This document shows, one piece after another, positions 2,124-29,396 of a stretch of 64,000 bases of DNA (positions within the stretch are counted from its first letter, which is position 1; each line of letters begins with the position of its first letter). Both the position numbers and the translations under genes were made by a program. Location: NCBI GenBank assembly GCA_903847975.1, contig CAINFC010000294.1:811-64810 (forward strand). The letters run 5' to 3'. The notes beneath the pieces were generated by a model that worked only from the letters and a program-made list of their open reading frames with translations, was not told where the DNA came from and did no database searches. This DNA is from an uncultured Acidobacteriota bacterium (GTDB taxonomy: Bacteria > Acidobacteriota > UBA6911 > CAINFC01).

Positions 2124-2364
2124 AGCCAGTCTCCTGTTTTCATGATAATGATTGGATTCTAGGAACGGATCGCGGCGATTGTCAAGCGCCCGGGGGCAAA
2201 ACCGGTCCGCCCGGCCCGGGGGCCGGATCGCGGCTTCCGCTCCTCGGCACGGCTTTTCCCCTTGATTTCACGAAGTGCGGATCGTAAACTTCCCCTGGAG
2301 CAGTGTCGAAAACCATGCATGCACAACAACCGGCAGGAAACTGCGGATTCTTCTTTCTACCTTT

Positions 2365-4128
2365 ATGAAGCCTTACGACCTGCTCCTGGTGCACGCGCAC
2401 CGCGATTCCTTCGCTGCCTTTTATGAAGACGTCTCCATCGGGACCAACCTTCTGGCGGGCACGCTTCGGGCCCGGGGATTCGAGGTCGGATATTTTCGAG
2501 GCTTTGCCGTGGAGGCCGCCGCCTGGATCCGAGCCGAATGGCGCGGTCGGGGCGCCCGGGCCATCGGGTTCTATTGCGATTACGAAAACGAAACCCTGAT
2601 TGCCGAGATGGGCCGGGGCCTTCGGGCGGTTTCGGACCTCCCCCTGATCGTCGGCGGGCCGCAGGCCTGCTTCCTGCAGGAGGATTTTTTCCGGCGTTCA
2701 GGGTGCTGGGCGGCGGTGCGGGGGGAAGCGGAGGATACGGTGGCCGAGCTGCTGGCGCTGCTGCGCAACGGAAGCGGCAGTCGGGAAGGCATTGCCGGAA
2801 TCAGTTTTCCGGGGCCGGATGGCCGGCTGATCCGGAATCCGGATCGGGAGCCGATTGCCGACCTGAACGCTCTTCCCTGGCCGGACTTTACCATGGAAAA
2901 GAATCATGCCCATTGGGTCAGCCTCCCGGTGCTCTCCGGCCGGGGCTGCCCCTTCCGCTGCGGATTTTGCTTTCAGGGAGCGGTTTCCACCCGGGTGCGC
3001 CTGCGCAGCGTCGCCGAGGTCATGCGCGAGATCCGCCACCACTTTGCGGTTCATGCCAACCTGCGATCCGTATATTTTGTGGACGACACCTTTACCCTCC
3101 ACCCCGGGCGGGTCGGGGAGTTTTGCGAAGAGCTGGCGCGGCTGCGCCAGGAGCGCGATTTCGTCTGGTTTTGCGAGGGGCACGTGCAGACCCTGCACCG
3201 CTGGCCGGAAATGGCAGAGCAGATGGCCGCCGCCGGACTGGTCAAAATCTTCATCGGAGTGGAATCCGGTTCGGATCGGGTGCTGCAGCTCTACCGCAAG
3301 CAGACCACGGCGGCCATGATCGAAGAAACGGTCGGGCAGTTGGTCCGGGCTGGCATCCCGCAGGTGGTCGGAAACATCATCCTCGGCGGGCCGCAGGAAA
3401 GTCCGGACACGGTTCGGGAAAGCAGGGAGCTGGTATTCCGCTTGCTGGACGCCCATCCCGGCCGGTTCGACTGCCTCGGATTTTTCCTGGTTCCTTTTCC
3501 CGGCACTGCGGTGGCCGAGCAGCCCGACGCGCTGGGGCTGCGCCTGCTGGATCACGGGCGCAAGGCGGTGGTGGACGACATTCCCTTCACCGAAACGGAA
3601 AGCCTGTCCTTTCCCGATCTGTTCCGAATCCGGCGGGAGTTCCATCGGCAGACGCTCACCCGAATGCGGGAGCTGTTTCTGGCCGGCCAAATCCCTCGTC
3701 CGGTCCTGGAGTCGATCTATCATCTTCATGGCCGCTACGGGATCGGCTCGCGCTGGATGCAGAATATTTTCCGGCTCTACCCGATGTCCCACCGCTACTA
3801 TTCGATGCTGGCCGGGAAAGCGATCCGCTCCCCGAAGGGGGTATCCTGCGTAAGGATTCGGCGCTGGCGCCCGCGCCGGCTCTTCGAGATCTGGAACGGA
3901 GTCCGTTTTACCAACGGCTACCCGGAGCTGGCCGGAATACCGCTTTCTCCGCTGGAATATGAACTGCTTCTGCCGTGTACCGGGAAGCTGACTCTGGACG
4001 AAATCCTGGAGAAGACCTTCCCGAAATTCCAGGAGCGTTTTCCGGACCGGGCCGCCTTCCGCCGCCTGGCGCGGCAGCTTCTTCTTAAAATGGAAGCCCG
4101 GTGCTGGATCGGCTTTCACGAGGCCTGA
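2365..4128 (+). CDS. B12-binding (class B) radical SAM enzyme, paralog 1, with C-terminal PqqD-like RRE motif
   Basis: CxxxCxxC cluster SGRGCPFRCGFCFQG. N-terminal Rossmann-type cobalamin-binding-like domain (LLLVHAHRD...GFYCDYENE...IVGGPQA). C-terminal LSPLEYELLLPCTGKLTLDEIL. ATG at 2365 was chosen by alignment with the paralog 2 N-terminus. The track ORF begins at GTG 2275. Confidence 0.85.
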   Translation: MKPYDLLLVHAHRDSFAAFYEDVSIGTNLLAGTLRARGFEVGYFRGFAVEAAAWIRAEWRGRGARAIGFYCDYENETLIAEMGRGLRAVSDLPLIVGGPQACFLQEDFFRRSGCWAAVRGEAEDTVAELLALLRNGSGSREGIAGISFPGPDGRLIRNPDREPIADLNALPWPDFTMEKNHAHWVSLPVLSGRGCPFRCGFCFQGAVSTRVRLRSVAEVMREIRHHFAVHANLRSVYFVDDTFTLHPGRVGEFCEELARLRQERDFVWFCEGHVQTLHRWPEMAEQMAAAGLVKIFIGVESGSDRVLQLYRKQTTAAMIEETVGQLVRAGIPQVVGNIILGGPQESPDTVRESRELVFRLLDAHPGRFDCLGFFLVPFPGTAVAEQPDALGLRLLDHGRKAVVDDIPFTETESLSFPDLFRIRREFHRQTLTRMRELFLAGQIPRPVLESIYHLHGRYGIGSRWMQNIFRLYPMSHRYYSMLAGKAIRSPKGVSCVRIRRWRPRRLFEIWNGVRFTNGYPELAGIPLSPLEYELLLPCTGKLTLDEILEKTFPKFQERFPDRAAFRRLARQLLLKMEARCWIGFHEA

Positions 4129-4129
4129 C

Positions 4130-5920
4130 ATGAATCCCACCGCAAACAGGAACACCCCCTCTCCGTACGACATTCTACTGATCCATGCCCATCGGGACTA
4201 CTATTTTGCCGCCGCGGACGGGATCGCCATTGGAACCCTGCTGCTGGCCTCGGTTTTACGGGATCGCGGACTGCGGGTTGGCTATTTCCGCGGCTTTGCC
4301 GGGGAAACCGCCGGGTGGCTGCGGGCCGAGCTGGAAGCGACCGGAGCGCGCTGCGTCGGCTTTTACTGTGACTACGAGAACGTGACCCTGGTGGAATCCC
4401 TGTCGCGGATGGTCAAATCCGGCGGGGAAATACCCGTGGTGGTGGGAGGCCCGCAGGCCTTTGCGCTGACCGAAGAGTTCTTCGAGCGGTCGCGCTGCGA
4501 TTTCGCCATCCGCGGGGAGGCGGAAAGGACCCTGCCGGAGCTTCTGGAGCACCTTCTGGAGGGAAAGGGCTGCCGGGAGGCCATCGACGGAATCAGCTAT
4601 CCGGACGGCGGCGGGCGGCTGGTCCGAAACCGGGACCGGGAGCTGATCGCGAATCTGGATGAGCTGCCCTTCGCGGACTTCCGCCTGGAACGGCGCTGGC
4701 CCTACCAGAAAAGCCTGCCGGTGCTCAGCGGGCGGGGGTGCCCCTACCGCTGCGCTTTCTGCTTCGAAGGCGGCAACACCCGGACCGTCCGATACCGCAG
4801 CGTGGGCCATGTGATGGCCGAAATCCGGGAGAATCTGAACCGCCGGCCCGACCTGCGCTCCGTCTTTTTTCTGGACGATACCTTCACTCTGAACCGGCAG
4901 CGGGTGGAAGAATTCTGCCGGGAACTTTCGCAGCTGCGCCGGCAGCACGATTTCGTATGGTTCTGCGAAGGGCACGTGCAGACCATCAACCGCCACCCCG
5001 ACCTGCTGCCGGTCATGGTGGCAGCCGGCCTGGTCAAAATGGCCATCGGCATCGAGTCGGGCTGCGACGAAACGCTCCGGCTGTACAACAAGCAATCCTC
5101 GGCCGCGGAAATCGAAGCCGCGGTGGGACGCCTGGTGCGGGCCGGCGTGCCGCAGGTCGAGGGGAATATCATCCTGGGCGGGCCGCAGGAAACAAAACAA
5201 ACCGCCCGGGCCAGCCTGAACCTGGTCCTGCGGCTGCTTCGGGCCCATCCCGGAAAATTTTTCAGCGGGGCCTATTTCCTGACTCCTTTTCCAGGAACAG
5301 CCATCACCTGCGCCCCGGAGCGGTTTGGCCTGAAATTTCTGCCCCCGAGAGTGAAAAGCGGGCTGGACGACATCCCGCAGGCTGAAACCGAAGCGTTGTC
5401 GATTGCCCGGCTTTTTGAAATCCGGCGATCCTTCGTCCGCCGCGTCCATTCCGCCATGAGCCGGATTCTGCACTCCGGGAAAGTGCCGCACGACTCGATG
5501 ACCTCCGCGTATCGGCTGGCGGCCCGCTACGGCATCGCTTCGCGCTGGCTGCAGAACCTGACCGGGCGGGTTCCGGTCACCGACCGCTATTTCTCTCTGC
5601 TGGCCCGCGGCGGGGCGGTTTCCTCCCGCGGCATCCGGCGGGGGCGGCTGATGAAAATGCACCCGATGCGCACGTTCGAGGTCTGGAATTCGATCCGGTT
5701 TTCGGAAGGCTATCCGGTGATCCAGGGTTTTGCCCTTTCTCCCCTGGAGTACGATCTGCTGTGCGCCAGCAGCGGAAAGCGGCCGCTCGGCGAGATCCTG
5801 CAATCCGCCTTCCGGAAATTCGGGAGCAGCAGCGGCGATTATTCCGAATTCGAAAAGCTTTCTATGGGACGTCTGAAGGCCTTCGAGAAAAAGCACTGGC
5901 TGGCCTATTCCGAATTCTGA
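4130..5920 (+). CDS. B12-binding (class B) radical SAM enzyme, paralog 2, with C-terminal RRE motif
   Basis: 596 aa. SGRGCPYRCAFCFEG. N-terminal ILLIHAHRD...GFYCDYENV...VVGGPQAF. C-terminal LSPLEYDLLCASSGKRPLGEIL. Starts 2 nt after the paralog 1 stop, suggesting operonic coupling. Confidence 0.9.
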   Translation: MNPTANRNTPSPYDILLIHAHRDYYFAAADGIAIGTLLLASVLRDRGLRVGYFRGFAGETAGWLRAELEATGARCVGFYCDYENVTLVESLSRMVKSGGEIPVVVGGPQAFALTEEFFERSRCDFAIRGEAERTLPELLEHLLEGKGCREAIDGISYPDGGGRLVRNRDRELIANLDELPFADFRLERRWPYQKSLPVLSGRGCPYRCAFCFEGGNTRTVRYRSVGHVMAEIRENLNRRPDLRSVFFLDDTFTLNRQRVEEFCRELSQLRRQHDFVWFCEGHVQTINRHPDLLPVMVAAGLVKMAIGIESGCDETLRLYNKQSSAAEIEAAVGRLVRAGVPQVEGNIILGGPQETKQTARASLNLVLRLLRAHPGKFFSGAYFLTPFPGTAITCAPERFGLKFLPPRVKSGLDDIPQAETEALSIARLFEIRRSFVRRVHSAMSRILHSGKVPHDSMTSAYRLAARYGIASRWLQNLTGRVPVTDRYFSLLARGGAVSSRGIRRGRLMKMHPMRTFEVWNSIRFSEGYPVIQGFALSPLEYDLLCASSGKRPLGEILQSAFRKFGSSSGDYSEFEKLSMGRLKAFEKKHWLAYSEF

Positions 5921-5925
5921 ACGCC

Positions 5926-7677
5926 ATGCCCCCGCCCGAGAAGCTCTATATCCTGCTGCTCTATATCCAGCGCCTGGCGCCGGGAAGAAATTTCGAGCAC
6001 CTGGACAGCCTGGGAATCATGACCCTGGCGGCCTTTCTGGAAGACAAGGGCTACAGGGCGCGCACCTACACCGGGATTACCACGGATGCGCTCCGCGTGG
6101 CGGAGGAGGAAATAGGGCGGGAAAACCTGGGGGCCATCGGGCTCACCTGCGATTACGACAATCAGAGCGCGGTTATCTCCTTTGCCCGGGCCATTAAGGG
6201 ACGACACAGGATTCCGATCATCGTTGGAGGTCCGCAGGCTTTTCACCTGCGCTCCGGATTCCTGCGGGAGGCCCGCTGCGATTTTCTGATCAAGGGGGAC
6301 GGGGAGCAGGCGCTTTTCGAGTTGCTGGAGTGCCTCGGCGAAGGTCGGGATCCATCCGCATCGATTGCCGGCCTGACCTGTTTCGATCGGGATGGGGTCG
6401 AGAGGGAAAATCCGCCGAGGCCCCCCGGGCGAAACCTGGATGGGCGGCCTTTTCCCCGAACCCGCTACCGGCTGCGGCCGGGGAAGCGACGGGCGCTCTC
6501 GGTCATTGGCAGCCGGGGCTGTCCCTACCGCTGCTCGTTTTGTTTCGAGGGCGGAAACACCAAGCGGTTCCGCCCGCGCAGCGTGGGCGACGTGATGGCC
6601 GAGATCCGTCTGGGCCTGGAGGAGAACCCGGAGGCCCGGTACCTGATGTTCCAGGACGATACCTTTACCCAGCAACCAGACCGCACTCTGGCCTTCGCCC
6701 GGGAGCTGGCCGCACTGCGCCGGACGCGCGACTTCGTCTGGTTTTGCGAGGCGCATCCCGGCTTCCTGGTGCGTCATCCCGAAGTGCTGCCGGAAATGAT
6801 CGGCGCCGGCTTGCAGCGCATGCAGATCGGGTTCGAATCGGGGTGCCGGGGCACCCTGGATCAGTATCGGAAGGGAATCAGCCCGGAGCAGCTTCGGGAG
6901 GCGGTGCGGCTGTGCTGGGATGCGGGGCTGCCTCAGCTGGCGGGCAATTTCATCATCGGCGGGCCGGGGGAAGAGGAGCGAACCCTCACGACCACCCGTG
7001 ATTTTATCCTGGAGATCCTGAACGGCTTCCCCGGAATGCTGGACCTGTCCACCACCTTTATTAATCCGCTTCCGAATACCGAAATTACCCGGCAGCCGGA
7101 AAAATTCGGGATGATAATTACGGATCCGGAGATGTGCACCTCGCTGGAAGACTACCCGGTGAACGAAACGCTATCGCTGGACCGCGTGGCCATATGCCGG
7201 GCGAGGCGAAACATGGTGGAGGCGATATCCGCGACCATGAAGCGGCAGTATGCGGAAGGACTCATTCCTGCAGGCCGCATGAAAAGGCACTTCGAACTGG
7301 CTCTGCGATACGGAGTATCGAGCAGCTGGTTCAATTATGTTTTTTCGCGGGATGAAGTCTGCATGAGCTACCACACCCTTCTGCTCTTCACTTCCGCCCG
7401 GGGCATCGATGAAGCCAGGCCGGAGGAACTGCAAAGTGCCTTTCCGCTGCGCGTCGCCGACCCGGAAGGGATCGGACCCGGCAGGGGATCGCGCCTCGGG
7501 GCGCTTCTCTCCGCAGACGACCGAAGGATTTTAGGCGCTTGCGATGGTAAAACCCGCCTGGACGCCCTGGCGGCGCTCTTTTCGGGCAGGAGCGGCGCCA
7601 GCGCAGTGCCGCCGGATCCCTTCCTGAGCCGAATCGACGATCTGTCAAGGCGTCGCTGGCTGGTTTTTTTTCACTGA
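5926..7677 (+). CDS. B12-binding (class B) radical SAM enzyme, paralog 3
   Basis: GSRGCPYRCSFCFEG. N-terminal B12-like domain (GLTCDYDNQ...IVGGPQAF). ATG 5926 lies 6 nt after the paralog 2 stop. The track ORF start 5761 overlaps paralog 2 and is unlikely. The C-terminal ILGACDGKTRLDALAALF is a degenerate RRE-like motif. Confidence 0.85.
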   Translation: MPPPEKLYILLLYIQRLAPGRNFEHLDSLGIMTLAAFLEDKGYRARTYTGITTDALRVAEEEIGRENLGAIGLTCDYDNQSAVISFARAIKGRHRIPIIVGGPQAFHLRSGFLREARCDFLIKGDGEQALFELLECLGEGRDPSASIAGLTCFDRDGVERENPPRPPGRNLDGRPFPRTRYRLRPGKRRALSVIGSRGCPYRCSFCFEGGNTKRFRPRSVGDVMAEIRLGLEENPEARYLMFQDDTFTQQPDRTLAFARELAALRRTRDFVWFCEAHPGFLVRHPEVLPEMIGAGLQRMQIGFESGCRGTLDQYRKGISPEQLREAVRLCWDAGLPQLAGNFIIGGPGEEERTLTTTRDFILEILNGFPGMLDLSTTFINPLPNTEITRQPEKFGMIITDPEMCTSLEDYPVNETLSLDRVAICRARRNMVEAISATMKRQYAEGLIPAGRMKRHFELALRYGVSSSWFNYVFSRDEVCMSYHTLLLFTSARGIDEARPEELQSAFPLRVADPEGIGPGRGSRLGALLSADDRRILGACDGKTRLDALAALFSGRSGASAVPPDPFLSRIDDLSRRRWLVFFH

Positions 7678-7720
7678 TTCGGGTTTTGCACCGGAAAGCC
7701 CGGGAACGGAAAAAAATTCT

Positions 7721-7999
7721 TTAGCTGGCAGTCTGAACGCCGACGAAGACGTAGTCCACGCCGACAATGGACAGCCCGCCGGCGACCTTGTCGAGCTCCT
7801 CGTCGCTCATGGCTTTCTTGGGACCGGCGGCCAGGCTTTCCTGGGCGGCCTGACGGAATTCCGGGATGGAAACCTCGAATCCCTGCCTTTGGGCGATGCT
7901 GAGGAAATCCTCTTCCGACTTGGCCTTTTTCAGCTGGTTCTGAAGGTCGATGTCCGACTGGAGCTTGGCGACCAGGGCTTTGGCACTTTCTGCTGACAT
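7721..7999 (-). CDS. RiPP precursor peptide with Nif11-type leader, Gly-Gly cleavage motif and 17-aa core
   Basis: 92 aa: MSAESAKALVAKLQSDIDLQNQLKKAKSEEDFLSIAQRQGFEVSIPEF...AMSDEELDKVAGG|LSIVGVDYVFVGVQTAS. The N-terminus matches the Nif11 domain pattern (L..kl..d..Lq..l..a.s.ee...iA...GF). It ends with the ELxxVAGG double-glycine motif. SD GGGAGG lies 8 nt before the ATG at 7999. Confidence 0.8.
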   Translation of the reverse strand: MSAESAKALVAKLQSDIDLQNQLKKAKSEEDFLSIAQRQGFEVSIPEFRQAAQESLAAGPKKAMSDEELDKVAGGLSIVGVDYVFVGVQTAS

Positions 8000-8050
8000 G
8001 TTAAAAACCTCCCACGAAAATTAACATTGAAAGAAAGGAAAGAGGTAAAC

Positions 8051-8079
8051 ATTATAGGGGAAAAGGCGGTTCTTTGCAA
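8051..8079 (-). promoter_or_regulatory. Near-consensus sigma70-like promoter for the precursor peptide gene (TTGCAA-N17-TATAAT)
   Basis: On the minus strand, -35 TTGCAA is at 8079-8074, followed by a 17-nt spacer and -10 TATAAT at 8056-8051. This places the promoter about 50 nt upstream of the precursor ATG at 7999. Confidence 0.45.
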
Positions 8080-8187
8080 CCGGTGGCCCGCTTTTTTTTG
8101 TTCTGCCAGGCGCAATCCGTCGGCTTTCGGGCTTTCGCGAGAACTCTCCTCATTGGGACGGCAGAACCGCACCCCGTCCACGACTTC

Positions 8188-8273
8188 TTTCGCTATCGCT
8201 ATCGCTATCGAAAAGATCCCTTCGCGGGGTATGGCGACGGGTTTTTTGTTTCGATCACGATAGCGATAGCGAA
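8188..8273. repeat. Large inverted repeat: 26-nt arms containing (CGCTAT)3 hexamer repeats, 34-nt spacer
   Basis: Left arm tttcgctatcgctatcgctatcgaaa (8188-8213). Right arm tttcgatcacgatagcgatagcgaaa (8248-8273). The arms are reverse complements with 2 mismatches. The repeat lies between the 3' end of rSAM paralog 4 and the precursor promoter. Confidence 0.7.
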
Positions 8274-8315
8274 ACAAGGAACCCCATTGAGGGTTCCGGA
8301 CTTTTTGCGGCGCCA

Positions 8316-10079: not shown

Positions 10080-11829
10080 AGGCCAGCCAGTATTTTTCCT
10101 CAAAGAGTCTCATTTTTTTCATACAGGTTCTGTCGAATTCCCGGCGCCTGCGGTACAGGCCGGCAAATTTCGGGTAGACGGCGTCCAGGACCGCCTGCAG
10201 GGTCAGCTTCCCGGTGGAGTGCAGCAGCAGGTCGAATTCCAGCGGGGAGAGCACGTAACGGCCGATAGCCGGATAGCCTTCCGAAAAATCGACATCGTGC
10301 CAGAGCTCCAGAATACGCTGCGGTCGCCATCCCGGGAGCTCGCCGCGGGGGATTTCGCGGGAGCGCCGGACGGCTCTCCTGGCAATCAGCGAATAATAGG
10401 GACTAAGAAAGGGAACCCGGTCGTAAACGACCCTTCTCCAGATGAAACTCTGGCGCTCGACCCGTTCCCGGAAAGCGTAGGCGATACGCTCGTGGGGTAC
10501 CTTCCCTTCACGAAACAGCTTCCACATGACCTCCACCATGGAATCGACCAGGTATTTCTGCCCCTGGGCAATCGCCTCGCGGTCCAGCCCGGTGCTTTCC
10601 GTCAGCGGGAAATCGGAAATAGCCGTTCCTCCGGAGGGGTCGAGGACTTTCAGCCCGAATTTTTCCGGCGTCCGGGTAATTTCCGTGCCGGGATAGGGCA
10701 TGACCGGGCTTGGCGAAATTTCAATGATTCCGGGGGCGGTCCGTATCAGCTTTTCGACGAAGCGGCAGTTCTGTCCGGTGATTTTCCCGGACTCAAAGGG
10801 TGCGCCGGTGAGAATGCAGGCAAAGATCTGCCGGACTCCGGCCTTTACGGCATTCCGGACGACCCGCAGCACCATGGCCGGGGTGATCTTTTTCCGGCAG
10901 GCGTCGAGCACCTTCCGGGAAGCCGATTCGATGCCGATCTGCAGCCGGACCAGGCCGGACGGCACCATCAGGTCCAGCATTTCCGGCCAGCGGTCCAGCC
11001 TTTCGACGTGCGCCTCGCAGTACCAGCGGAAGTTTTTCCGGGTGCGAAGCCTGGCCAGCCCGGCGCAGATTTCTCTCACCCGCTCCAGGGAAAGAGTGAA
11101 GGTATCGTCGGTAAAGGCGATGTAATCGACGACAGGATATCGTCCCAGAACGGTTTCTATTTCCTGGAGGATGCTCGGGACGCTTCGGAACCTGGCTCTG
11201 TATTTGGCGGCTCCCTCCTGGCAGAAGGCGCAGCGGTACGGGCAGCCGCGCCCGGTCATGATGTTGTATCGGGGCTGCAGGATATAGTCCGGGCACAGGT
11301 GATAGGCGGGCAGCGGGATCAGGTCGAGATCTTCGACGATTTCCCCCGGGCCGGTGGAAATCAGGCTCCCGTCCTCCCCAAGGTAGAGGAGCCCGGGAAT
11401 CTTCCTCCAGTCCGGGTCCGGCGACGGCAGGCACTGCAGCAGGCGGAGCAGGGGCACTTCCCCTTCTCCGACCACGGCCGCCAGGCAGCCGGTTCGCTTC
11501 AGGAACCGGGCGTCAAATCCGACGGCCTGCGGTCCGCCGAGCAGGACCGGCACAGCGAACTGACCGGCGATCCATGGGCCAAGCTCCTGAACTTCCACCT
11601 GATTTTCGAAATCGCAGTATAAGCCGACCGCCAGCAGATGCGACCCCTCGGCTTTTTCACGGATCAGGGCCATGGCCCGGATCGGCTCGCAGCTGTAGAT
11701 TTCCGGAGCGTAGCCATGCGTTTCCAGCCAGGAGCCGAGGCTCAGCAGGCCGCCCGGGATTTCCCAGGCAATCTCCATGCTGGAGGGGATGATCCGATGA
11801 ACGTTGAGCAGCAGTACGGTCTTGGTCAA
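10066..11829 (-). CDS. B12-binding (class B) radical SAM enzyme, paralog 5, with C-terminal RRE motif
   Basis: TGRGCPYRCAFCQEG. N-terminal VLLLNVHRI...GLYCDFENQ...LLGGPQAV. C-terminal LSPLEFDLLLHSTGKLTLQAVL. TTG start 11829 is preceded by AGAGGA 7 nt upstream. Confidence 0.85.
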   Translation of the reverse strand: MTKTVLLLNVHRIIPSSMEIAWEIPGGLLSLGSWLETHGYAPEIYSCEPIRAMALIREKAEGSHLLAVGLYCDFENQVEVQELGPWIAGQFAVPVLLGGPQAVGFDARFLKRTGCLAAVVGEGEVPLLRLLQCLPSPDPDWRKIPGLLYLGEDGSLISTGPGEIVEDLDLIPLPAYHLCPDYILQPRYNIMTGRGCPYRCAFCQEGAAKYRARFRSVPSILQEIETVLGRYPVVDYIAFTDDTFTLSLERVREICAGLARLRTRKNFRWYCEAHVERLDRWPEMLDLMVPSGLVRLQIGIESASRKVLDACRKKITPAMVLRVVRNAVKAGVRQIFACILTGAPFESGKITGQNCRFVEKLIRTAPGIIEISPSPVMPYPGTEITRTPEKFGLKVLDPSGGTAISDFPLTESTGLDREAIAQGQKYLVDSMVEVMWKLFREGKVPHERIAYAFRERVERQSFIWRRVVYDRVPFLSPYYSLIARRAVRRSREIPRGELPGWRPQRILELWHDVDFSEGYPAIGRYVLSPLEFDLLLHSTGKLTLQAVLDAVYPKFAGLYRRRREFDRTCMKKMRLFEEKYWLAYAPL

Positions 11830-11856
11830 AACAGGTCCTCTATGCCCTCCGAAGGG

Positions 11857-13623
11857 TCAATATCGTGTGAAGATCAGAAATTGCCGGTTCTCCAGCTCCT
11901 GCAGGATGCGGATCATTTCGACCTCGCTCTGCGGCCATTGCTCCTTCCATCTCCCCGAGCCCTCGTGCCGCTCGAGCAGCTCCCCGATGGAGAACTTTCC
12001 GGTACAGTAAAGGATCACCTGGTACTCCGCGGGGGTGATCGGCATGCCGAGCAGCTCCGGCGGCTCTTTCCGGAAATCGACCGTATTTCCCAGGTAGGGA
12101 ATACGCACCGGCCGCCAGAGGCGGAGCTCCTCCCGCGGAATTTCGCACAGGCTGCGGGCCGAGCTGCTGCCGAGCAATGTGAATCTCCGGTCGAAGTTTA
12201 CGTGCTGGGAGTACACCAGGCTGTGCCAGGTGCTCGATATCCCGTATCGGCGGTAGAGCTCGTAGTGCCGGCGGATCCGCGCATGGGGAACGCCTCCCTG
12301 AAAGGTCAGGTCCCACATCAGCTGCCGGATTTGCCGGGAAAACCGCCGCCGGCCTCCGGCGATATGCTCCCGGCTGAGGCCGGTAGTGGCCGCCACAGGG
12401 TAATCTCCGGTGGAGGTCACCGAAGCGCTGTCGACCGGCCGGATTCCGAACCGTTCGGGGGATTGCGTCATGGTGGTTCCCGGGAAAGGGGTGTACAGTG
12501 TGTGGGTAATGTCAAGCATGCCGGGAGCCCGCCGGAGCAGGCGGGTCACGAATTCTTCGGTTTCGGCCAGGGTCTCCGGGGTTTCCATGGCCCCGCCGAA
12601 AATGATATTCCCGCACAGCTGGGGCAGGTCCTGTTTGACGCAGAGGTCCACGACCTGTTCGATCTGGGTCAGATCGGTACTCTTGCCGTACAATTGCACG
12701 ACCTTTGCGGAGCCGGTTTCGATGCCAATCTGCATCCGCACCAGCCCGGCCTCGATCATTTCCGGCAGCATGTCCGGCCATTTTACGATCAGGCTGGGGT
12801 GCGCATCGCAGAACCATACGAAATCGTGCCGGCCCCGCAGCTCCTTCATGGCCCCGCAGAACTCGGTGACCCTGCGGGGATTCAGGGTGAAGGTGTCGTC
12901 GGCAAACCATACGTAGCGGATGCCCGGGGAATCCCGAAAGCCCTGCTCGATTTCCTCCCGCACGCTCTGTACGCTGCGCAGCCGCACGTTGCGGGTGTTT
13001 CCTCCTTCGAAGCAGAAGGCGCAGCGGAAAGGGCATCCCCGGCCGGTAAGCACCGCCAGGTTGGTTTTTTTGCCGGTCAGAGAAAATTCGGCCCGGGGAA
13101 CCGGCAGGGCATCCAGGTCTTCGATGGCCGGCCGGTCCGGAGTTCGGATCAGCTGCCCGGTGGCATCCAGAAAGGTAATGCCGGCGATTTCCTGCAGCGA
13201 TCCTTTGCCCTTCACAAAAAAATCCAGCAGCTCCGGAAGAGTCTGCTCTCCCTCTCCGCGCCCTACCGCATCGCAGAGAGAAGACCGGAGAAACCCGGCT
13301 TCCAGAAAATACCCCTGCGGCCCGCCGGCAAAGACGGGTACGGAGTACTTTCCTTTGGCGGTGCGGGCAAAGGATTCGACCACATTCTGGTTTTCATAGT
13401 CGCAGTAAAGGGCGATGGCCTGGACCCCTTCTTTCCGGTACATATTTTCGAGAAGGGGCAGGGCGTCGGTAATCGATCCGGTGAAAACCCGCGGGCAGTA
13501 GCCATGCCGGTCCAGGGCCGCCGCCAGGGTCATCAGCCCGATCGGCTCTACGTAGCGGTAGAACTGCTTGAAAGAGGCTCTCTGCAGGAAAAGCAATAAA
13601 ACTTTGGCAATACCCCTGGTCAT
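11857..13623 (-). CDS. B12-binding (class B) radical SAM enzyme, paralog 6, with C-terminal RRE-like motif
   Basis: TGRGCPFRCAFCFEG. N-terminal B12-like domain (ALYCDYENQ...FAGGPQGY). C-terminal ITPAEYQVILYCTGKFSIGELL. ATG 13623 (MTRGIAK...) has AAGGAAA immediately upstream. The track ORF extends to 13800, but that extension lacks homology to the paralog N-termini. An alternative ATG is at 13647. Confidence 0.85.
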   Translation of the reverse strand: MTRGIAKVLLLFLQRASFKQFYRYVEPIGLMTLAAALDRHGYCPRVFTGSITDALPLLENMYRKEGVQAIALYCDYENQNVVESFARTAKGKYSVPVFAGGPQGYFLEAGFLRSSLCDAVGRGEGEQTLPELLDFFVKGKGSLQEIAGITFLDATGQLIRTPDRPAIEDLDALPVPRAEFSLTGKKTNLAVLTGRGCPFRCAFCFEGGNTRNVRLRSVQSVREEIEQGFRDSPGIRYVWFADDTFTLNPRRVTEFCGAMKELRGRHDFVWFCDAHPSLIVKWPDMLPEMIEAGLVRMQIGIETGSAKVVQLYGKSTDLTQIEQVVDLCVKQDLPQLCGNIIFGGAMETPETLAETEEFVTRLLRRAPGMLDITHTLYTPFPGTTMTQSPERFGIRPVDSASVTSTGDYPVAATTGLSREHIAGGRRRFSRQIRQLMWDLTFQGGVPHARIRRHYELYRRYGISSTWHSLVYSQHVNFDRRFTLLGSSSARSLCEIPREELRLWRPVRIPYLGNTVDFRKEPPELLGMPITPAEYQVILYCTGKFSIGELLERHEGSGRWKEQWPQSEVEMIRILQELENRQFLIFTRY

Positions 13624-13645
13624 TTTCCTTGTTACCGGGATACCC

Positions 13646-13651
13646 ATTATA
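13646..13651 (-). promoter_or_regulatory. Candidate -10 box (TATAAT) upstream of rSAM paralog 6
   Basis: Minus strand reads ...cgtccagTATAATgggtatcccggtaacaAGGAAAATG. A perfect TATAAT lies 23-28 nt upstream of ATG 13623, within an AT-rich 100-bp gap after the hybrid HK gene. No good -35 was seen. Confidence 0.3.
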
Positions 13652-13726
13652 CTGGACGATCCATTTATTATGATTTCTTTTTTTCGTCGGCCGGGAATGG
13701 CGGAGTTCGAGCGGGTCCGCACGGCC

Positions 13727-15931
13727 TCAGGGCTGGTTCTTCTGCACCGTCCGCCGGTCGAGCAGCTGACGGATTTTTTGCAGAAGCACCTCGCGCTCAT
13801 AGGGCTTCTGGATCAGGTGCAGCTGTTCGTGGATCACGAAATCGGTATGGATGCCGCTCTGGCTGTAGCCGCTGGTAAACAGGATGGGGACCTCCGAGCC
13901 GGTGGCCCGGATCTGGTCCATGACCTCTTTCCCTCCCAGGTTAGGCATCATGACATCCAGCACCACCAGGTCGATCCGGTTCCGGTTCCGCTCGTAGATC
14001 TGGAGGGCTTCCAGGCCATCCGCAGCGGTCAGGACGGTGTAGCCGGCTTTGCGGAGAAAGGCCGCCTGGATGTGCAGAAGGGCGGTATCGTCCTCTGAAA
14101 TCAGGATGGTCTCTTTCCCGCCGGTCAGGGCCGGTTGGGAAGGGTTCGGCGATTTTTCGTTGGCGACCTCGACGATGGGCAGGTAAACCTGGAACACGCT
14201 GCCCTCTCCCGGCTTGCTGGAGGCGTGGATCAGGCCGTGATGCTGCTTGACGATTCCATACACGCTCGACAGGCCGAGTCCTGTCCCTTTTCCCAGGCCC
14301 TTGGTGGTAAAGAAGGGCTCAAAGACCTGGGCCAGCGTCGAGGCATCCATGCCGGCCCCGGTGTCCGCTACGCTCAAAAGAGCGTAGGCTCCCTCTTTGG
14401 CCCAGGCATTCAGGCTGCAAAACGACCGATCCAGAATTTCGGGACGGATTTCGATGGTGATCCGGCCGCCTTTGGGCATGGCATCCCGGGCGTTGATGCA
14501 GAGGTTGAGGAGAACCTGCTCCATCTGTCCCTTGTCGGCAAAAACATTGCCGGTCTTATGTCCGCTGACAACGCAGAGCTGGATGTTCTCTTCGATCAGC
14601 CGCCGGAGCATTTTCAGGACGCCCTGCACCAGGTCGTTCAGGTCCAGGTATACCGGGTGGATCACCTGGCGCCGGCTGAAGGCCAGGAGCTGACGGGTCA
14701 GGTCGGCAGCCCGCCGCCCGGCCGAGCTGATTTCCTCACATTCGCTCCAGGCCAGGGTGCCGGGCATAAGTTCCGACTGAAGGCTGTCGGCATTCATCAG
14801 GATCACCTGCAGCAGATTGTTGAAGTCGTGGGCCACTCCTCCGGCCAGATGTCCCACTGCTTCCATTTTCTGGGACTGGCGCAGCTGCTCCTCCAGGGTC
14901 TTCTGCTCCTCCTCCCTCTGCTTCCGTTCGGTGATGTCCTGGACAATACCGACGGATCGGACCGGTTCTCCCTGGGTATCGAATTCATTCCGGCCGATCG
15001 CCTTGACCCACTTGATCCGGCCGTCCTTCATGCGCAGCCGGTATTCGATTTCGAGAGGACGGTATTGGGAAACGGACAAGGTATAGGCTCGATGGACCAT
15101 ATCGCGGTCTTCCGGATGAATGCTTTCCAGGAAAGCTTCGTAGGTCGCTTCGAACCGCTTCGGGTCGATTTCGAAGAGCTCGAAAATTTCCGGCGGCCAT
15201 TGCATGCGGTTATCCTTCCGATCGAGGCTCCACATGCTCATTTTGGCAATCCGCTGCGCTTCCCGGAGATTGGCTTCGCTCTCCCGCAGCGACCGCTCCG
15301 CGTGCCGGCGGGCCTTCAGCTCCGCCTCCAGATCCTCCTTGGTCTTCACCAGGTCGGCGGTCCGCTCGCGTACCCGGACTTCCAGCCCGGCCTGCGCCCG
15401 GCGGAGCTCCTCCTCCTGTCTTTTTGCGGCGCTCATATCGGTAAGGATCAGGCAGACGGCCGTAATCTTATCTTCCATTTCCAGGGAAATGGCGGAAAGA
15501 AGCACCGGGACGGTCCCCTCCGGATCGACGGCCAGATTGAGCTCCAGGGCCTTTCCCGTGGCCAGATCCTCCCGGATCAGACGGTCAAAGGCCGGCCGGT
15601 CGGGGAGGGAAATCAGCGGGAGGAAGGAATTTCCGATGATCTGTTCCATCGGCTTGCGCAGCAAGGCCGCCAGGCTCCGGTTGCAGTACATGGTGCCGCC
15701 GTCCCGGGTCAGGATGGCCGCCCCCTCGTTCATGTTTTCCACCAGCAGGCGGTAGGTGCGCTCCGCATGCTGCAAGGTGAAGACGCGCTGACCCCCGGGG
15801 CCCGAAACGATCAGGGCGTCCACTTCGCCGCAGCGGATGGCATGCAGCGTATGCTCGGCCTCCTCCAGTCGGGCGCGAAGTTCCCGGATTTCCCGGTGAA
15901 GGCCTTGACTCGAAGATGGATTCCTGGTCAT
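13727..15931 (-). CDS. Hybrid sensor histidine kinase (PAS domains, HisKA, HATPase_c, C-terminal receiver)
   Basis: 734 aa. H-box HLAGGVAHDFNNLLQVI. ATPase G-boxes (DTGAGMD, GLGKGTGLGLS). C-terminal REC ILISEDDTALL...LVVLDVMMP. Coiled-coil and PAS segments are N-terminal. The start overlaps the kaiB stop by 4 nt (ATGA). Confidence 0.85.
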   Translation of the reverse strand: MTRNPSSSQGLHREIRELRARLEEAEHTLHAIRCGEVDALIVSGPGGQRVFTLQHAERTYRLLVENMNEGAAILTRDGGTMYCNRSLAALLRKPMEQIIGNSFLPLISLPDRPAFDRLIREDLATGKALELNLAVDPEGTVPVLLSAISLEMEDKITAVCLILTDMSAAKRQEEELRRAQAGLEVRVRERTADLVKTKEDLEAELKARRHAERSLRESEANLREAQRIAKMSMWSLDRKDNRMQWPPEIFELFEIDPKRFEATYEAFLESIHPEDRDMVHRAYTLSVSQYRPLEIEYRLRMKDGRIKWVKAIGRNEFDTQGEPVRSVGIVQDITERKQREEEQKTLEEQLRQSQKMEAVGHLAGGVAHDFNNLLQVILMNADSLQSELMPGTLAWSECEEISSAGRRAADLTRQLLAFSRRQVIHPVYLDLNDLVQGVLKMLRRLIEENIQLCVVSGHKTGNVFADKGQMEQVLLNLCINARDAMPKGGRITIEIRPEILDRSFCSLNAWAKEGAYALLSVADTGAGMDASTLAQVFEPFFTTKGLGKGTGLGLSSVYGIVKQHHGLIHASSKPGEGSVFQVYLPIVEVANEKSPNPSQPALTGGKETILISEDDTALLHIQAAFLRKAGYTVLTAADGLEALQIYERNRNRIDLVVLDVMMPNLGGKEVMDQIRATGSEVPILFTSGYSQSGIHTDFVIHEQLHLIQKPYEREVLLQKIRQLLDRRTVQKNQP

Positions 15932-16257
15932 TTTTTTCGCAAGTCAAGCCCGATGAGAACCTTGTCGGTGTCCGAAAGGTCCCCGATGATGCGCCGCAAG
16001 GGCAGCGGCAGTTTTTTAATGAGCGTCGGGGCAGCAATGATCTGCTCCCCCTCCGCCAGGGTCGGCTGCTGATAGATATCCACCACTTCCAGGGTGTAGC
16101 GGCCGTGCAGGTGCTCCTCGCAGATCTTGCGGATGTTGGCGATGGCCCGCACGGAACGGGGAGTAAGGCCGGTTACGAAGAGGCGTAAAACGTAATTGGA
16201 CGACTGGGTCCGGGTCAGCGCCTTTTCAAACGAAGCCGTCGCCGATCTGGTTTTCAT
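15928..16257 (-). CDS. kaiB: Circadian clock protein KaiB (copy 1)
   Basis: 109 aa. YVLRLFVTGLTPRSVRAI...LEVVDIYQQPTLAEGEQIIAAPTLIKKLPLPLRRIIGDLSDTDKVLIGLDL. Near-collinear match to cyanobacterial KaiB, including the RRIIGDLSD block. Confidence 0.85.
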   Translation of the reverse strand: MKTRSATASFEKALTRTQSSNYVLRLFVTGLTPRSVRAIANIRKICEEHLHGRYTLEVVDIYQQPTLAEGEQIIAAPTLIKKLPLPLRRIIGDLSDTDKVLIGLDLRKK

Positions 16258-16261
16258 GAGG

Positions 16262-16615
16262 TCAGTCTTCTCCCTTCGGCTTCAGGTCCAGCCCGACCAG
16301 CACGCGCTCCGTGTTGGACAGATTCCCGATGATCCTGCGCACCGGCGGGGGAAGCTTGCGGATCAGGGTAGGCAGGGCCACGATCTGATGGTCCTGGGCC
16401 AGTTGGGGGTTTTCGAGGAGGTCGATGATTTCGATCCGGTACTGCCAGCCAGCCAGGTTTTCCTCACAGATCCGGCGGAGGTTGGAAAAAGCCTCGAGGG
16501 ATTTGGGCGTCTGTCCGGCGACATAGAGCTGCAGGATCCAGACCTTGCTTCCGTCCCGCAATGGGCCTTTTGACCGGGATGTTTTCCGGGCGGCATCGGC
16601 CGCGATGTCCTTCAT
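16262..16615 (-). CDS. kaiB: Circadian clock protein KaiB (copy 2)
   Basis: 117 aa. [18 protein letters not shown]...[51 protein letters not shown]. Its stop is 4 nt from the start of kaiB copy 1. Confidence 0.85.
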
Positions 16616-16744
16616 GAAGTTCCTCTGCTTTCTTGAGAACCGTCATTGGGAAAAATGTTTGGATTCCCTTCGAGGGATGCGGAGGATTCCCCACCGGGAG
16701 AGAAGCGAATGCACTTCCCCGACCCCGGGAGATGCCTGCGCGCT

Positions 16745-18481
16745 TCAGCTTTTCCTTTCCTGCTTGCCGGCCGATGGCTGGTCGGCCTGCCTTTGCTCGG
16801 CAAGACGGGCCCGCGTCTGCCCCTGGACCTTTTCGCCCAGTTCTTCCTGGGAGACGGTCCGGTTCAGCTCCTCGCATTCCGATTCGAATTCGGCGCGCAG
16901 GGCGGCGATCTGCGCCTCGATCAGCCGGCGCTTGCGCTCGATTTCCCGCTGCTTGCGCTCGATATCCTGTCGCCGGACCAGGGTTTCCGCCTTGTCCCGG
17001 GCGTCCTGCACGATGCGGGAAGAGCCGGTAAGCAGCGTCCCGGAGGGCCCCAGGTAGACGTCGAGCAGCTCCACGCCGTTGTTGGTGAGCTGAAATTCCC
17101 GGATCTGGTTGGAGTGGGCCATGCCGCGGGACTTCAGCAGATAGATGCCGCGGTTGCGCTCCCCGCTGTTTTCGATGTCCCGCAGGAGCAGCCAGGTATC
17201 CATGATCGAGGAGATTCCCACGTCGGTGGTTTCGATTCCCGAACCGCCCGCAGAAAGGCTGGTGAAAAGCGTGGTAATCTGCCGGGACTTGAAAAAATCG
17301 ACCAGGCGGATCAGCATGGCTTTGCTTTCCGCCGGGCTGCCGATGGCTAGAAAATTGGTCACCGGGTCGACAATGACTACCTCGGGCCGATGCTGCTGGG
17401 TCAGCTTGTGCATGGTCACCAGGTGCATTTCCAGCCCATACAGCGTGGGGCGGGTGGCATGAAAATAAAGCAGGCCTTTTCGAACCCAGGGTTCCAGGTC
17501 GATGCCGATAGAGCGCATGTTGCGCATGATCTGCTCCGGGGATTCCTCGAAAGCGAACCAGAGGCAGCGCTCCCCCCGCCGGCAGCAGGCCTGGGCAAAA
17601 TGGGCCGCAATGCTGGTTTTGCCGGTTCCCGCGGTTCCGGAAACCAGGATGTTGCTGCCTCGGTAGTATCCTCGTCCTCCCATCATGGTGTCCAGGCGTT
17701 CGATGCCGCTGGGAATCCTTTCTGTGGAGGCCCGGTGCGAGAGATCCAGGGAGGTGATCGGCAGGACGGAAATGCCGTGTTCGTCGATCAGAAAAGGATA
17801 TTCGTTGGTGCCGTGCTTGGAGCCGCGGTATTTGACAATGCGCATGCGCCGGGTGGCCGTCTGCTCTATGATCCGATGGTCCAGAGCGATCACGCAATCG
17901 GCGACATACTCCTCCAGGCCGTAGCGGGTTAGGGTTTTTTCCCCCTGCTCTCCGGTAATGATGGCGGTCAGGCCGTGGTCCTTCAGCCAGCGGAACAGGC
18001 GGCGCAGCTCGGCCCGGAGAATGGCAGGGTTCGAAAGACCGGAAAACAGGGCCTCGATAGTGTCCAGCACCACCCGGCGGGCTCCAACTTGGGCTATGGC
18101 GTGCGACAGGCGCAGAAAAAGGCCTTCCAGGTCGTAGTCGCCGGCCTCCTGGATTTCGTTCCGGTCAATGTAGACGTAATCGACTGCGATTTTTTTCCTG
18201 CGGATCAGTCCGTCCAGGTCGAAGCCCAGCGGGCGGAAGTTCTGGGTCAGCTCCGGGCCGGTTTCCTCAAAGGATAGGAAGACGCCCGGCTCATCGAATT
18301 CCATGGCTCCGCGAAGGAGAAATTCCATGGCCAGCAGAGTCTTTCCACAGCCGGCCGTGCCGCAGACCAGCGTGGGGCGGCCCCGGGGCAGTCCGCCATC
18401 GGTAATTTCGTCCAGTCCCTGTATTCCGGTCGGGCATTTGGACAGATCGGGAGTATGGGGCGCGCGCTTCACTGGTTTCAT
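16745..18481 (-). CDS. kaiC: Circadian clock ATPase/autokinase KaiC (double RecA-like domain)
   Basis: 578 aa. CI Walker A VCGTAGCGKTLLAMEF plus EFDEPGVFLSFEET. CII Walker A VSGTAGTGKTSIAAHF. N-terminal GIQGLDEITDGGLPRGRPTLV and an overall duplicated architecture matching KaiC. Confidence 0.9.
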   Translation of the reverse strand: MKPVKRAPHTPDLSKCPTGIQGLDEITDGGLPRGRPTLVCGTAGCGKTLLAMEFLLRGAMEFDEPGVFLSFEETGPELTQNFRPLGFDLDGLIRRKKIAVDYVYIDRNEIQEAGDYDLEGLFLRLSHAIAQVGARRVVLDTIEALFSGLSNPAILRAELRRLFRWLKDHGLTAIITGEQGEKTLTRYGLEEYVADCVIALDHRIIEQTATRRMRIVKYRGSKHGTNEYPFLIDEHGISVLPITSLDLSHRASTERIPSGIERLDTMMGGRGYYRGSNILVSGTAGTGKTSIAAHFAQACCRRGERCLWFAFEESPEQIMRNMRSIGIDLEPWVRKGLLYFHATRPTLYGLEMHLVTMHKLTQQHRPEVVIVDPVTNFLAIGSPAESKAMLIRLVDFFKSRQITTLFTSLSAGGSGIETTDVGISSIMDTWLLLRDIENSGERNRGIYLLKSRGMAHSNQIREFQLTNNGVELLDVYLGPSGTLLTGSSRIVQDARDKAETLVRRQDIERKQREIERKRRLIEAQIAALRAEFESECEELNRTVSQEELGEKVQGQTRARLAEQRQADQPSAGKQERKS

Positions 18482-18557
18482 TCCTGGGTTTCCTCCTGCT
18501 TCCGAACCGCAATCTCACACTTATGAGGTGAGTATAGAATGATTGGGCCCGCCGTTC

Positions 18558-18574
18558 AAATACTTTGTGAGTAT
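18558..18574. promoter_or_regulatory. 17-bp palindrome AATACTttgtgAGTATT in the AT-rich kaiC upstream region
   Basis: Perfect 6-bp arms with a 5-nt spacer, about 80 nt upstream of the kaiC start, within the 300-bp intergenic region. Confidence 0.25.
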
Positions 18575-18788: not shown

Positions 18789-19232
18789 TCATTCCGGGGT
18801 AAGCGGATTCCGGGAGAGCCATCCGCGGCTTGCCGCCTTGCGTGCCAGCAGGATCAGGAGAACGGCAATTGCCAGCACCAGGCCCTGTAACAGGAAAGGC
18901 ACGGGTCCGGCCAGGGACCAGACATCCGGCACAAGAAGCAGGCCGGCGTCCTGGACCGCCAGTCCGGCCAGGGAAGCAAGCAGCAGCGGCAGGGCCCAGT
19001 GACTGCGCCGCAGAAGCGCAAAGGAACCGGCCGCGCCCCCGCAAACGGCAATCGCCGTGGCGGATACCGCCCACCCGGTTCGCGATGCGAAGAGCGTCTG
19101 CTGCGCCGGGCTCATCCGGGAGATGTCTTCGGCGGTGACCAGCATGTCGCTGAGAAAAGCGAAGCATCCCAGCAGGTTCCAGAGGAGGGCCAGCAGGGCG
19201 ACCGGCCGATACCACTTGGGAATGGGCGTCAT
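18789..19232 (-). CDS. Hypothetical integral membrane protein (about 4 TM segments)
   Basis: MTPIPKWYRPVALLALLWNLLGCFAF... The ORF has four hydrophobic stretches. The overlapping 248-aa ORF in another frame is R/P-rich and was rejected. Confidence 0.4.
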   Translation of the reverse strand: MTPIPKWYRPVALLALLWNLLGCFAFLSDMLVTAEDISRMSPAQQTLFASRTGWAVSATAIAVCGGAAGSFALLRRSHWALPLLLASLAGLAVQDAGLLLVPDVWSLAGPVPFLLQGLVLAIAVLLILLARKAASRGWLSRNPLTPE

Positions 19233-19382
19233 TTTGATTCCTCCATGATTGGGTGGTCTCTTTATAGCCATTTTTTCGGTGTCCTCGTAAAAGGGTACGG
19301 CGCCTTTCAGGAAAAAACAAGTTTTGCGGCGCGACGCGTTTTTTGATTTTCCTGGAAACTTAATGAGCGGACCGGCATATTA

Positions 19383-26812: not shown

Positions 26813-27315
26813 GCCATGGCGTAGCCACTGACAAACATCGCTCCTAGAAACAACAGGCTGCCGGTGGCCAGCATCGCACCGCCGGTCAATGCCTGACCCG
26901 AAGTGCAGCCTGAGGCCACCCGGCTCGCGAACCCAGTCAGGATGCCACCCGTCAACGCCATTGCGATGCGACGACCGCGCGACGCCGTCGGCCCGCGTTC
27001 CAGTTGCGGCTGAACCCGCCGTCCCACGATCGCCGAGACAAGGCCTCCGAGCAGGGTGCCGACAAACATGAATACCAGATAGTATCGGAGGGGGTCCTTA
27101 CCCCAGGCCCCAAAGTAGGCGCTGTCCGCCACATGTTGCGGCATGAGGCAGCTTTGTGCGAATGCGCCAATCCGCGCAATGCCCGCAGAAGCCCCGAGTC
27201 CGACGCCCAGGAGGAGGAAGCTGGCGAGCAAAACCAGACCCAACAGAACCCCGGACAGATATGGATTCATGTAAGGTTTAGGGCCAAAGGACGGAGGGAT
27301 AGGGTTGGAATTCAT
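26785..27315 (-). CDS. YeeE/YedE-family membrane protein (second half of split transporter)
   Basis: Hydrophobic, with the conserved CTSG motif (ASGCTSGQALTG). AGGAGG lies 9 nt upstream of ATG 27315. The track ORF begins at GTG 27336. Confidence 0.75.
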   Translation of the reverse strand: MNSNPIPPSFGPKPYMNPYLSGVLLGLVLLASFLLLGVGLGASAGIARIGAFAQSCLMPQHVADSAYFGAWGKDPLRYYLVFMFVGTLLGGLVSAIVGRRVQPQLERGPTASRGRRIAMALTGGILTGFASRVASGCTSGQALTGGAMLATGSLLFLGAMFVSGYAMAWFCRRQWQ

Positions 27316-27339
27316 AGCTTCGTTCCTCCTGATCACGAT

Positions 27340-29358: not shown

Positions 29359-29396
29359 AACGAGATTCCTTATATGGGACAAGCCGGCAAAAAGTA

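Follow-up and report, generated by a model that had tools for sequence, protein, structure and literature searches.

We describe here a kai locus in a 64,000-nucleotide (nt) stretch of DNA from an uncultured Acidobacteriota bacterium (assembly GCA_903847975.1, contig CAINFC010000294.1), which we call the window and within which all positions are counted. Four genes on its minus strand (13727-18481) encode a KaiC protein, two KaiB proteins and a hybrid histidine kinase, and we consider it likely that together they constitute a complete KaiBC signalling cassette of the KaiC2, or Rhodobacter sphaeroides, type that works in the manner of an hourglass. The gene content of the locus, its conserved synteny, the integrity of its catalytic and phospho-acceptor residues, the classes into which the KaiB proteins fall, the natural KaiB fusions and the homology to the R. 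sphaeroides system, including its C-terminal tail, were all observed directly. In addition, the comparison with related loci brought out two family-wide patterns that seem not to have been described: KaiB paralogues that are fixed by position and in some loci fused, and a constant module of a helix and a PAS domain that is encoded directly after kaiB.

The order of the genes is kaiC (18481..16745, 578 amino acids (aa)), kaiB-a (16615..16262, 117 aa), kaiB-b (16257..15928, 109 aa) and the gene for the hybrid histidine kinase (15931..13727, 734 aa), all read on the minus strand. The initial annotation had described a non-cyanobacterial KaiBC system with two tandem kaiB genes, for proteins of 109 and 117 aa, and no kaiA, in which the start of the kinase gene overlaps the stop of the second kaiB so that the two are translationally coupled. 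Both descriptions hold: Pfam confirmed the genes, no KaiA domain was found by a Pfam scan of the approximately 37 open reading frames (ORFs) of the 64-kb window, and the junction between kaiB-b and the kinase gene, 'AAAAAAATGACC', shows the kinase ATG overlapping the TGA of kaiB-b (ATGA). The two kaiB genes are only 4 nt apart. A spacer of 129 nt (16616-16744), in which a terminator-like site was looked for and not found, separates kaiC from kaiB-a and places kaiB-b approximately 490 nt downstream of kaiC. A consensus scan returned a sigma-70-like promoter candidate, recognised by its pattern only, about 50 nt ahead of the kaiC start codon (TTGAAC-17-TATACT; 18531..18559, minus strand), and between this candidate and the start codon lies an AGGAGG ribosome-binding site. 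At the other end, the cassette is bounded by an A+T-rich gap of 103 nt (13624..13726) that follows the kinase stop codon. An ORF for a 160-aa membrane protein upstream of kaiC (18789..19271) was also considered as a member, but it has no homologue near kai genes in other loci and is therefore not part of the cassette.

Judged by its sequence, the KaiC of this locus is a KaiC2, or R. sphaeroides-type, protein. It matches the Pfam family KaiC (PF06745) over two stretches (E 6.3e-110; 366 bits against a cut-off of 26.6) and passes the NCBIfam equivalog NF006799 (736.7 bits against a cut-off of 408). Among proteins of solved structure it is closest to R. sphaeroides KaiC (PDB 8DBA, E 1.4e-195), with which it aligns without large gaps and through the C-terminal tail up to residue 554 of 578; the alignment with cyanobacterial KaiC structures (1TF7 and 2GBL, E approximately 1e-98) ends near residue 503. 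More than 8000 database proteins match it at E < 1e-30, the nearest of them other than itself being approximately 70% identical, and these come from many phyla. Both ATPase domains carry a Walker A motif and a catalytic FEE, namely GTAGCGKT (K47) and E72/E73 in CI and GTAGTGKT (K288) and E312/E313 in CII, and the Walker A lysines and catalytic glutamate pairs are invariant across 21 homologues. A Ser-Ser phosphosite pair, S424/S425 (codons at 17207..17212, minus strand), was identified by alignment to R. sphaeroides KaiC and corresponds to S413/S414 in 8DBA, the residues that are E413/E414 in the phosphomimetic structure 8FWI. The translation reads TDVGISS at this point, with T419 five residues upstream of the pair, and among the 21 homologues S425 is invariant and S424 is conserved in at least 90%. 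The initial annotation had made its proposal depend on these phosphosites and on the catalytic glutamates, and all of them are present. Beyond CII, residues 495-554 (16820..16999, minus strand) form an extension that the 8DBA alignment identifies as a homologue of the R. sphaeroides coiled-coil tail; it shows two heptad registers, one rich in Ala and Arg, the other rich in Ile and Leu. The mechanism of this clade was solved in 2023 (Pitsawong et al., PMC10076222). KaiC2 proteins have Ser-Ser phosphosites and a tail that is approximately 50 aa longer; this tail is a coiled coil that joins two hexamers and replaces KaiA, so that autophosphorylation takes place without KaiA. The same work reported that KaiB binds the CI domain of R. 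sphaeroides KaiC and that the R. sphaeroides KaiBC proteins undergo an hourglass-type phosphorylation cycle driven by the ATP:ADP ratio.

We compared the locus with 80 kai loci from GTDB species genomes, which are the best 80 of at least 594 matches and whose KaiC proteins are 60-66% identical to that of the window. Gene starts in these loci were set by a simple rule, and kaiB genes were counted wherever 900 nt or more of sequence followed kaiC, which was the case in 70 loci. The 80 loci are spread over more than ten bacterial phyla and also include Methanoperedens and Methanobacteriaceae. Two kaiB genes are present in 48 of the 70 loci, one in 17 and none in 5, and the gene after the last kaiB opens with a region homologous to residues ~10-180 of the window kinase in 42 of 43 two-kaiB loci and in 12 of 17 one-kaiB loci (54/60 altogether). 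The genes are closely packed, with a median gap of 0 nt between kaiC and kaiB (36 of 72 junctions overlapping), 15 nt between the kaiB genes (12 of 51 overlapping) and 16 nt between kaiB and the kinase gene (12 of 59 overlapping). The window contains every element by which we define the cassette, that is kaiC, a position-1 KaiB, a position-2 KaiB and a signalling protein with the N-terminal module (N-module). These counts show that tandem kaiB genes with a coupled kinase are the majority layout of this KaiC clade and are not peculiar to this locus. The arrangement of kaiC, kaiB and a kinase gene outside the cyanobacteria has been noted since 2011 (PMC3164672; PMC5520375). In the accessible literature, which mostly excludes subscription journals and is therefore weak evidence on this point, we found no description of position-specific KaiB paralogues, of KaiB fusions or of the conserved N-module.

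Both KaiB proteins of the window contain a KaiB domain (PF07689; 92.4 bits and E 1.5e-26 for kaiB-a, 94.8 bits and E 2.6e-27 for kaiB-b, against a cut-off of 27 bits), and kaiB-b also matches solved structures (PDB 4KSO, E 1.3e-27; 8FWJ_M, E 8.8e-27). Both fall short of the NCBIfam KaiB equivalog NF006798 (105.4 and 108.8 bits, respectively, against 110), but so does the experimentally validated KaiB of R. sphaeroides (94.2 bits), which indicates that the miss reflects a cyanobacteria-centred cut-off and not a different family. The two proteins are 51% identical to each other. Across phyla, position-1 KaiBs are 72% identical among themselves and position-2 KaiBs 58%, while identity between the classes is 51%, the same as within the locus. 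For 47 of 49 position-1 and 45 of 48 position-2 proteins, the most similar KaiB of any other locus is one of their own class, and six alignment columns discriminate the classes, with the window genes carrying the expected signature residues. Accordingly, kaiB-a belongs to the position-1 group, which is also the class nearer to R. sphaeroides KaiB (63% core identity against 51%), and kaiB-b to the position-2 group. Moreover, a profile search in other metagenomes recovered KaiB-KaiB fusion proteins of approximately 200 aa (P0166-P0172; L097:5001-5615 and L098:5001-5609), with at least two types of linker, in which a position-1-like domain is followed by a position-2-like domain, and the order in these loci is kaiC, fused kaiBB, PAS kinase. 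Given the fixed order, the old divergence and the fusions, we argue that the two paralogues work as a pair and probably act together, as a hetero-pair, on the same KaiC complex. As a separate observation, the single kaiB of the cyanobacterial KaiC2 loci L003, L018 and L062 best matches the position-2 class, and no gene with the N-module follows it. Several other lineages with a single kaiB, including R. sphaeroides, have kept the position-1 type, which suggests that different paralogues were lost in different lineages.

The fourth gene encodes a hybrid kinase in which Pfam recognises PAS_4, PAS_3, HisKA, HATPase_c and Response_reg domains, HisKA lying below the Pfam cut-off (21.9 against 26.9). 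The expected motifs are all present, with H368 (AHDFNN), an N-box at 476, DTGAG at 523, GTGLGL at 549 and, in the receiver, D659 and K709. Among the compared loci, its best full-length match is in a Bryobacterales locus. Sequence and modelling together indicate that this kinase carries a dedicated Kai-linked N-module whose predicted fold is other than that of the SasA domain. Residues 1-340 match only PAS families in Pfam, without a SasA-type KaiB-like domain, and the AlphaFold2 (AF2) model of the N-module (residues 1-185; 15377..15931, minus strand) is a PAS fold, which bears out the earlier statement that a SasA-type N-terminal domain is lacking. A GAF match, as expected of a CikA-type kinase, was likewise not found in Pfam, and the receiver is not a CikA-type pseudo-receiver, since it has the phospho-acceptor D659 as well as K709. 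In the model (predicted local distance difference test score (pLDDT) 82.8), a long helix is followed by a beta-hairpin ('GEVDALIV...RVFTL'), the PAS fold and a linker helix. Its closest fold matches are LOV and heme-PAS domains, such as those of FixL and DosP, at 12-24% identity, and none is thioredoxin-like.

It is the distribution of this module that links it to the Kai proteins. It aligns with the downstream genes of 59 loci, and cyanobacteria account for three of the loci counted above in which the gene after kaiB does not open with it. When the N-module alone was used as the query, 38 database matches were returned, and each of the five whose neighbourhood was inspected (E 1e-33 to 6e-12) sits immediately behind kaiB in a kai locus. 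The HWE kinase encoded after kaiB in R. sphaeroides also shares it (39% identity over 108 aa, E 7e-14). Behind the N-module, the effectors differ: among 50 outputs we counted HATPase_c in 34, REC in 17, a sigma-54 activator in 4, GGDEF in 3 and EAL in 3, and short proteins with PAS only occur too. A constant N-module joined to varied effectors is what one would expect if a single signal were received in the same way throughout and passed to different outputs. One further protein of 191 aa (P0158; L088:621-1196) joins a KaiB domain to the helix and the first half of the Kai-linked PAS module. Its PAS domain is cut short and the surrounding genes have been rearranged, kaiC lying downstream of three receiver genes; it could be either a true fusion or the product of a decayed gene, and we give it little weight. 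Elsewhere in the window, at 50683-55624, lie genes for a REC-REC-PAS-PAS protein (770 aa), a MEDS-domain protein (242 aa) and a PAS-HisKA-HATPase-REC hybrid kinase (667 aa); the latter shares 37% identity with residues 166-726 of the Kai-linked kinase and is without the Kai-linked N-module.

The system most similar to the cassette is R. sphaeroides KaiBC (Cereibacter, plasmid pB; 8DBA, 8FWI and 8FWJ; PMC10076222), which belongs to the same KaiC clade and shares with it the Ser-Ser phosphosites, the C-terminal tail, the lack of KaiA (for our locus, within the window), the order kaiC, kaiB, kinase and the helix-PAS module. It differs in having one kaiB where the window has two of distinct paralogue groups, and an HWE kinase core where the window has HisKA and HATPase_c with a receiver and a second PAS domain. 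Furthermore, R. sphaeroides KaiB has N88 and K90, whereas both KaiBs of the window keep the cyanobacterial G88 and D90 (S. elongatus numbering). Among cultured organisms, plasmid p3 of Pararhizobium qamdonense (RefSeq) carries kaiC, kaiB, a gene annotated as 'KaiB family protein' and a hybrid kinase gene in this order. Its kinase shares the N-module (40% identity) and the HisKA/HATPase/REC core (38%), but it is shorter (563 aa) and without the second PAS domain, and its KaiC is approximately 58% identical to that of the window.

The resemblance to the KaiABC/SasA/CikA system of Synechococcus elongatus is more distant. Both systems have a double-domain KaiC of the ATPase and autokinase family, and KaiB proteins of the same family; in S. 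elongatus a histidine kinase reads the state of the clock, and here a comparable coupling of the kinase is predicted. In contrast to S. elongatus, the window has no KaiA, the phosphosites are Ser-Ser and not Ser-Thr, a tail would take the place of the A-loop mechanism, two KaiB paralogues are encoded per operon, and the kinase has a PAS module in place of the KaiB-like domain of SasA or the GAF domain and pseudo-receiver of CikA. Rhodopseudomonas palustris also has a non-cyanobacterial kaiB-kaiC pair without kaiA, and its KaiC is likewise longer at the C-terminus (PMC4794148); unlike this phototroph, the window shows no phototrophy genes. In R. palustris, a kaiC-dependent fitness benefit was seen only in 24-h cycles (PMC4794148). 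Finally, in the KaiC-like system of Pseudomonas putida, a kinase is also encoded beside kaiC, and the N-terminal PAS domain of this kaiC-adjacent hybrid kinase suffices to bind the KaiC-like protein (bioRxiv 10.1101/2022.01.26.477890). Although the P. putida protein belongs to a different KaiC group and occurs without KaiB, we regard this interaction as the best experimental precedent for the kinase coupling that we propose.

On the basis of these comparisons, we propose that KaiC hexamers would pair via the C-terminal coiled-coil tail, as their homology to R. sphaeroides KaiC suggests, and that the tail would replace KaiA, allowing KaiC to autophosphorylate at S424/S425 when ATP:ADP is high. 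As ATP:ADP falls, fold-switched KaiB would be expected to bind the CI domain of phosphorylated KaiC and to speed up both ATP hydrolysis and dephosphorylation, and the outcome would be an hourglass that is reset by the environment rather than a free-running clock. The two KaiB paralogues may share one complex, probably as a hetero-pair, as their ancient, position-fixed conservation and the natural fusions suggest. The comparative evidence further points to a kinase that docks on the Kai complex through its helix-PAS N-module, in which case the state of KaiC could be passed to H368 by phosphorylation, from there to the receiver D659 and on to a further partner. If the hetero-pair and the docking through PAS are true, then the missing output link of non-cyanobacterial Kai systems would be identified, and clock biochemists would have concrete constructs to work with.

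The alternatives to this picture differ widely in how probable we consider them. It seems to us very improbable that kaiB-b is no more than a recent, redundant or decaying copy without a role of its own: the copies in the window are adjacent and 51% identical, which would fit such an origin, yet each resembles the copies found at its position in other phyla more than it resembles the adjacent kaiB, both ORFs are intact with good domain scores, and the fusions keep the two positions in order. A recent duplication is thus rejected by the nearest-neighbour classes and the discriminating columns. A different view of the kinase, which we find rather unlikely, holds that it is an input, its PAS domains sensing oxygen, redox or light and setting the state of KaiC. 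This has been suggested for the R. sphaeroides kinase (PMC5520375, PMC10931921), and the modelled N-module does resemble the sensor folds of heme-PAS and LOV domains. However, the low identity of these fold matches, the P. putida precedent of a PAS domain binding KaiC, and the retention of the N-module while the effector is swapped between kinase, sigma-54 activator, GGDEF/EAL and PAS-only forms argue against it. A possibility to be taken seriously, though we would not call it probable, is that the same parts do not serve as a timer at all but as a switch that responds to stress or energy state and signals ATP:ADP or redox to the phosphorelay, with no role in measuring day length. The occurrence of the cassette in many non-phototrophic lineages (methanogen-related archaea, syntrophs, Bacteroidota) favours such a switch, and so do a reported part in the oxidative-stress response for Legionella KaiBC and in salt and stress resistance for the KaiC-like proteins of Pseudomonas. 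Against it stand the hourglass-like cycling with ATP:ADP of R. sphaeroides KaiBC, the closest characterised homologue, and the restriction of the kaiC benefit in R. palustris to 24-h cycles. The timer and the switch overlap mechanistically, and sequence cannot separate them, nor can it tell a kinase that acts as output from one that acts as input sensor.

Several further points weigh against an hourglass cassette with paired KaiBs and a docked kinase. We infer timing, the dodecamer, the KaiB fold switch and the docking of the kinase from homologues that are 51-63% identical. In Legionella, according to papers that cite the original work, KaiBC acts in the stress response rather than in timing. 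Because the comparison drew on the top 80 of at least 594 matches, the frequencies given above hold for the nearest subclade and not for KaiC2 systems as a whole. The 129-nt spacer between kaiC and kaiB-a is atypical of the family, in which the median over 72 related loci is 0 and half of the junctions overlap; it might, for example, help to set the KaiC:KaiB ratio. Since the model system, R. sphaeroides, has a single KaiB, it provides no experimental precedent for what the second paralogue would do. In addition, an AF2 model of the fused di-KaiB, built on a six-sequence alignment, was unusable (pLDDT 50.7, predicted template modelling score 0.37), and distance-matrix (mirror-tree) comparisons of KaiC, KaiB1, KaiB2 and the N-module gave weak, uninformative correlations (0.05 to 0.31 for KaiB1, KaiB2 and the N-module).

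A last alternative concerns the neighbouring genes. Downstream of the cassette lies a proteusin-like locus for a ribosomally synthesised and post-translationally modified peptide (RiPP; 2275-13623) with six paralogous B12-binding radical S-adenosylmethionine (radical-SAM) enzymes of approximately 590 aa in two convergent sets. On the minus strand, the gap after the kinase stop (13727) is followed by three of these genes, the first with its ATG at 13623, and by the gene for a 92-aa Nif11-leader precursor (7721..7999, minus strand; TIGR03798, 61.4 bits against a cut-off of 32.3), whose core after the Gly-Gly site is LSIVGVDYVFVGVQTAS. The other three paralogues, on the plus strand (2275..7677), converge on this set. 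The best named relative of the enzymes is ApyD, with scores far below its cut-off. As the initial annotation had stated, the RiPP genes begin just downstream of the kinase on the same strand, and it had proposed from this that an hourglass-type timer gates the RiPP locus. If this were true, a timer of metabolic state would gate the production of a secondary metabolite, with the precursor and three modifying enzymes under kai control. Such gating could operate by read-through from the kai promoter or by action of the Kai-coupled kinase on the RiPP promoter, and what speaks for it, besides the common strand and the distance of 103 nt, is that the gap shows no terminator-like site in a scan and folds no better than shuffled sequence (z = 0.53), and that the arrangement is present on all readable contigs of this species.

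We nevertheless consider gating improbable. Radical-SAM genes lie beside kai in none of the 80 related loci, the sole matches (L076 and L077) being 25-26% identical and several kb away. The closest KaiC other than that of the window (70% identity) is followed by two kaiB genes, a PAS protein and unrelated genes, another (69%) likewise, and neither has an adjacent radical-SAM gene, so that the proposal fails on synteny. Conversely, a metagenome scan with the first radical-SAM protein yielded five loci, of which one has more than 2 kb upstream, making this a weak test alone. In three of them (L082, L083 and L085) several paralogues form an array together with a Nif11 precursor (46-61% identity), and L082 and L083 keep the 6-5-4 paralogue order of the window; no Kai or kinase match occurs in any of the five, whose flanking sequence is short, and in L083 (2.5 kb upstream) an unrelated 718-aa gene is found instead. 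The adjacency of kai and RiPP genes is therefore specific to this species. Moreover, the gap is A+T-rich and contains a TATAAT hexamer and an AAGGA ribosome-binding site of its own, which fits a separate start, and half of the radical-SAM genes are convergent and would be out of reach of read-through from kai. Taken together, the adjacency looks accidental and the RiPP operon a neighbour rather than a conserved part of the system. As the kai genes form a standard, self-contained KaiC2 module, the RiPP cluster should be analysed separately.

Scanning the entire window for Rfam families and tRNA genes gave no hits. Upstream of kai, beyond a gene for an outer-membrane barrel, a sulfur-handling gene set on the minus strand (24797-29442) encodes a Sulf_transp/rhodanese protein (671 aa), a Sulf_transp protein (183 aa) and a metallo-beta-lactamase/rhodanese protein (700 aa), and CarboxypepD_reg/OMP_b-brl_4 genes are also present in the window. 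Farther along, an ORF of 2531 aa (30906-38501) combines 13 FG-GAP repeats with BACON, fn3 and purple-acid-phosphatase-N-like domains, and the stretch around it has a G+C content of 0.53-0.59, compared with approximately 0.61 for the rest of the window.

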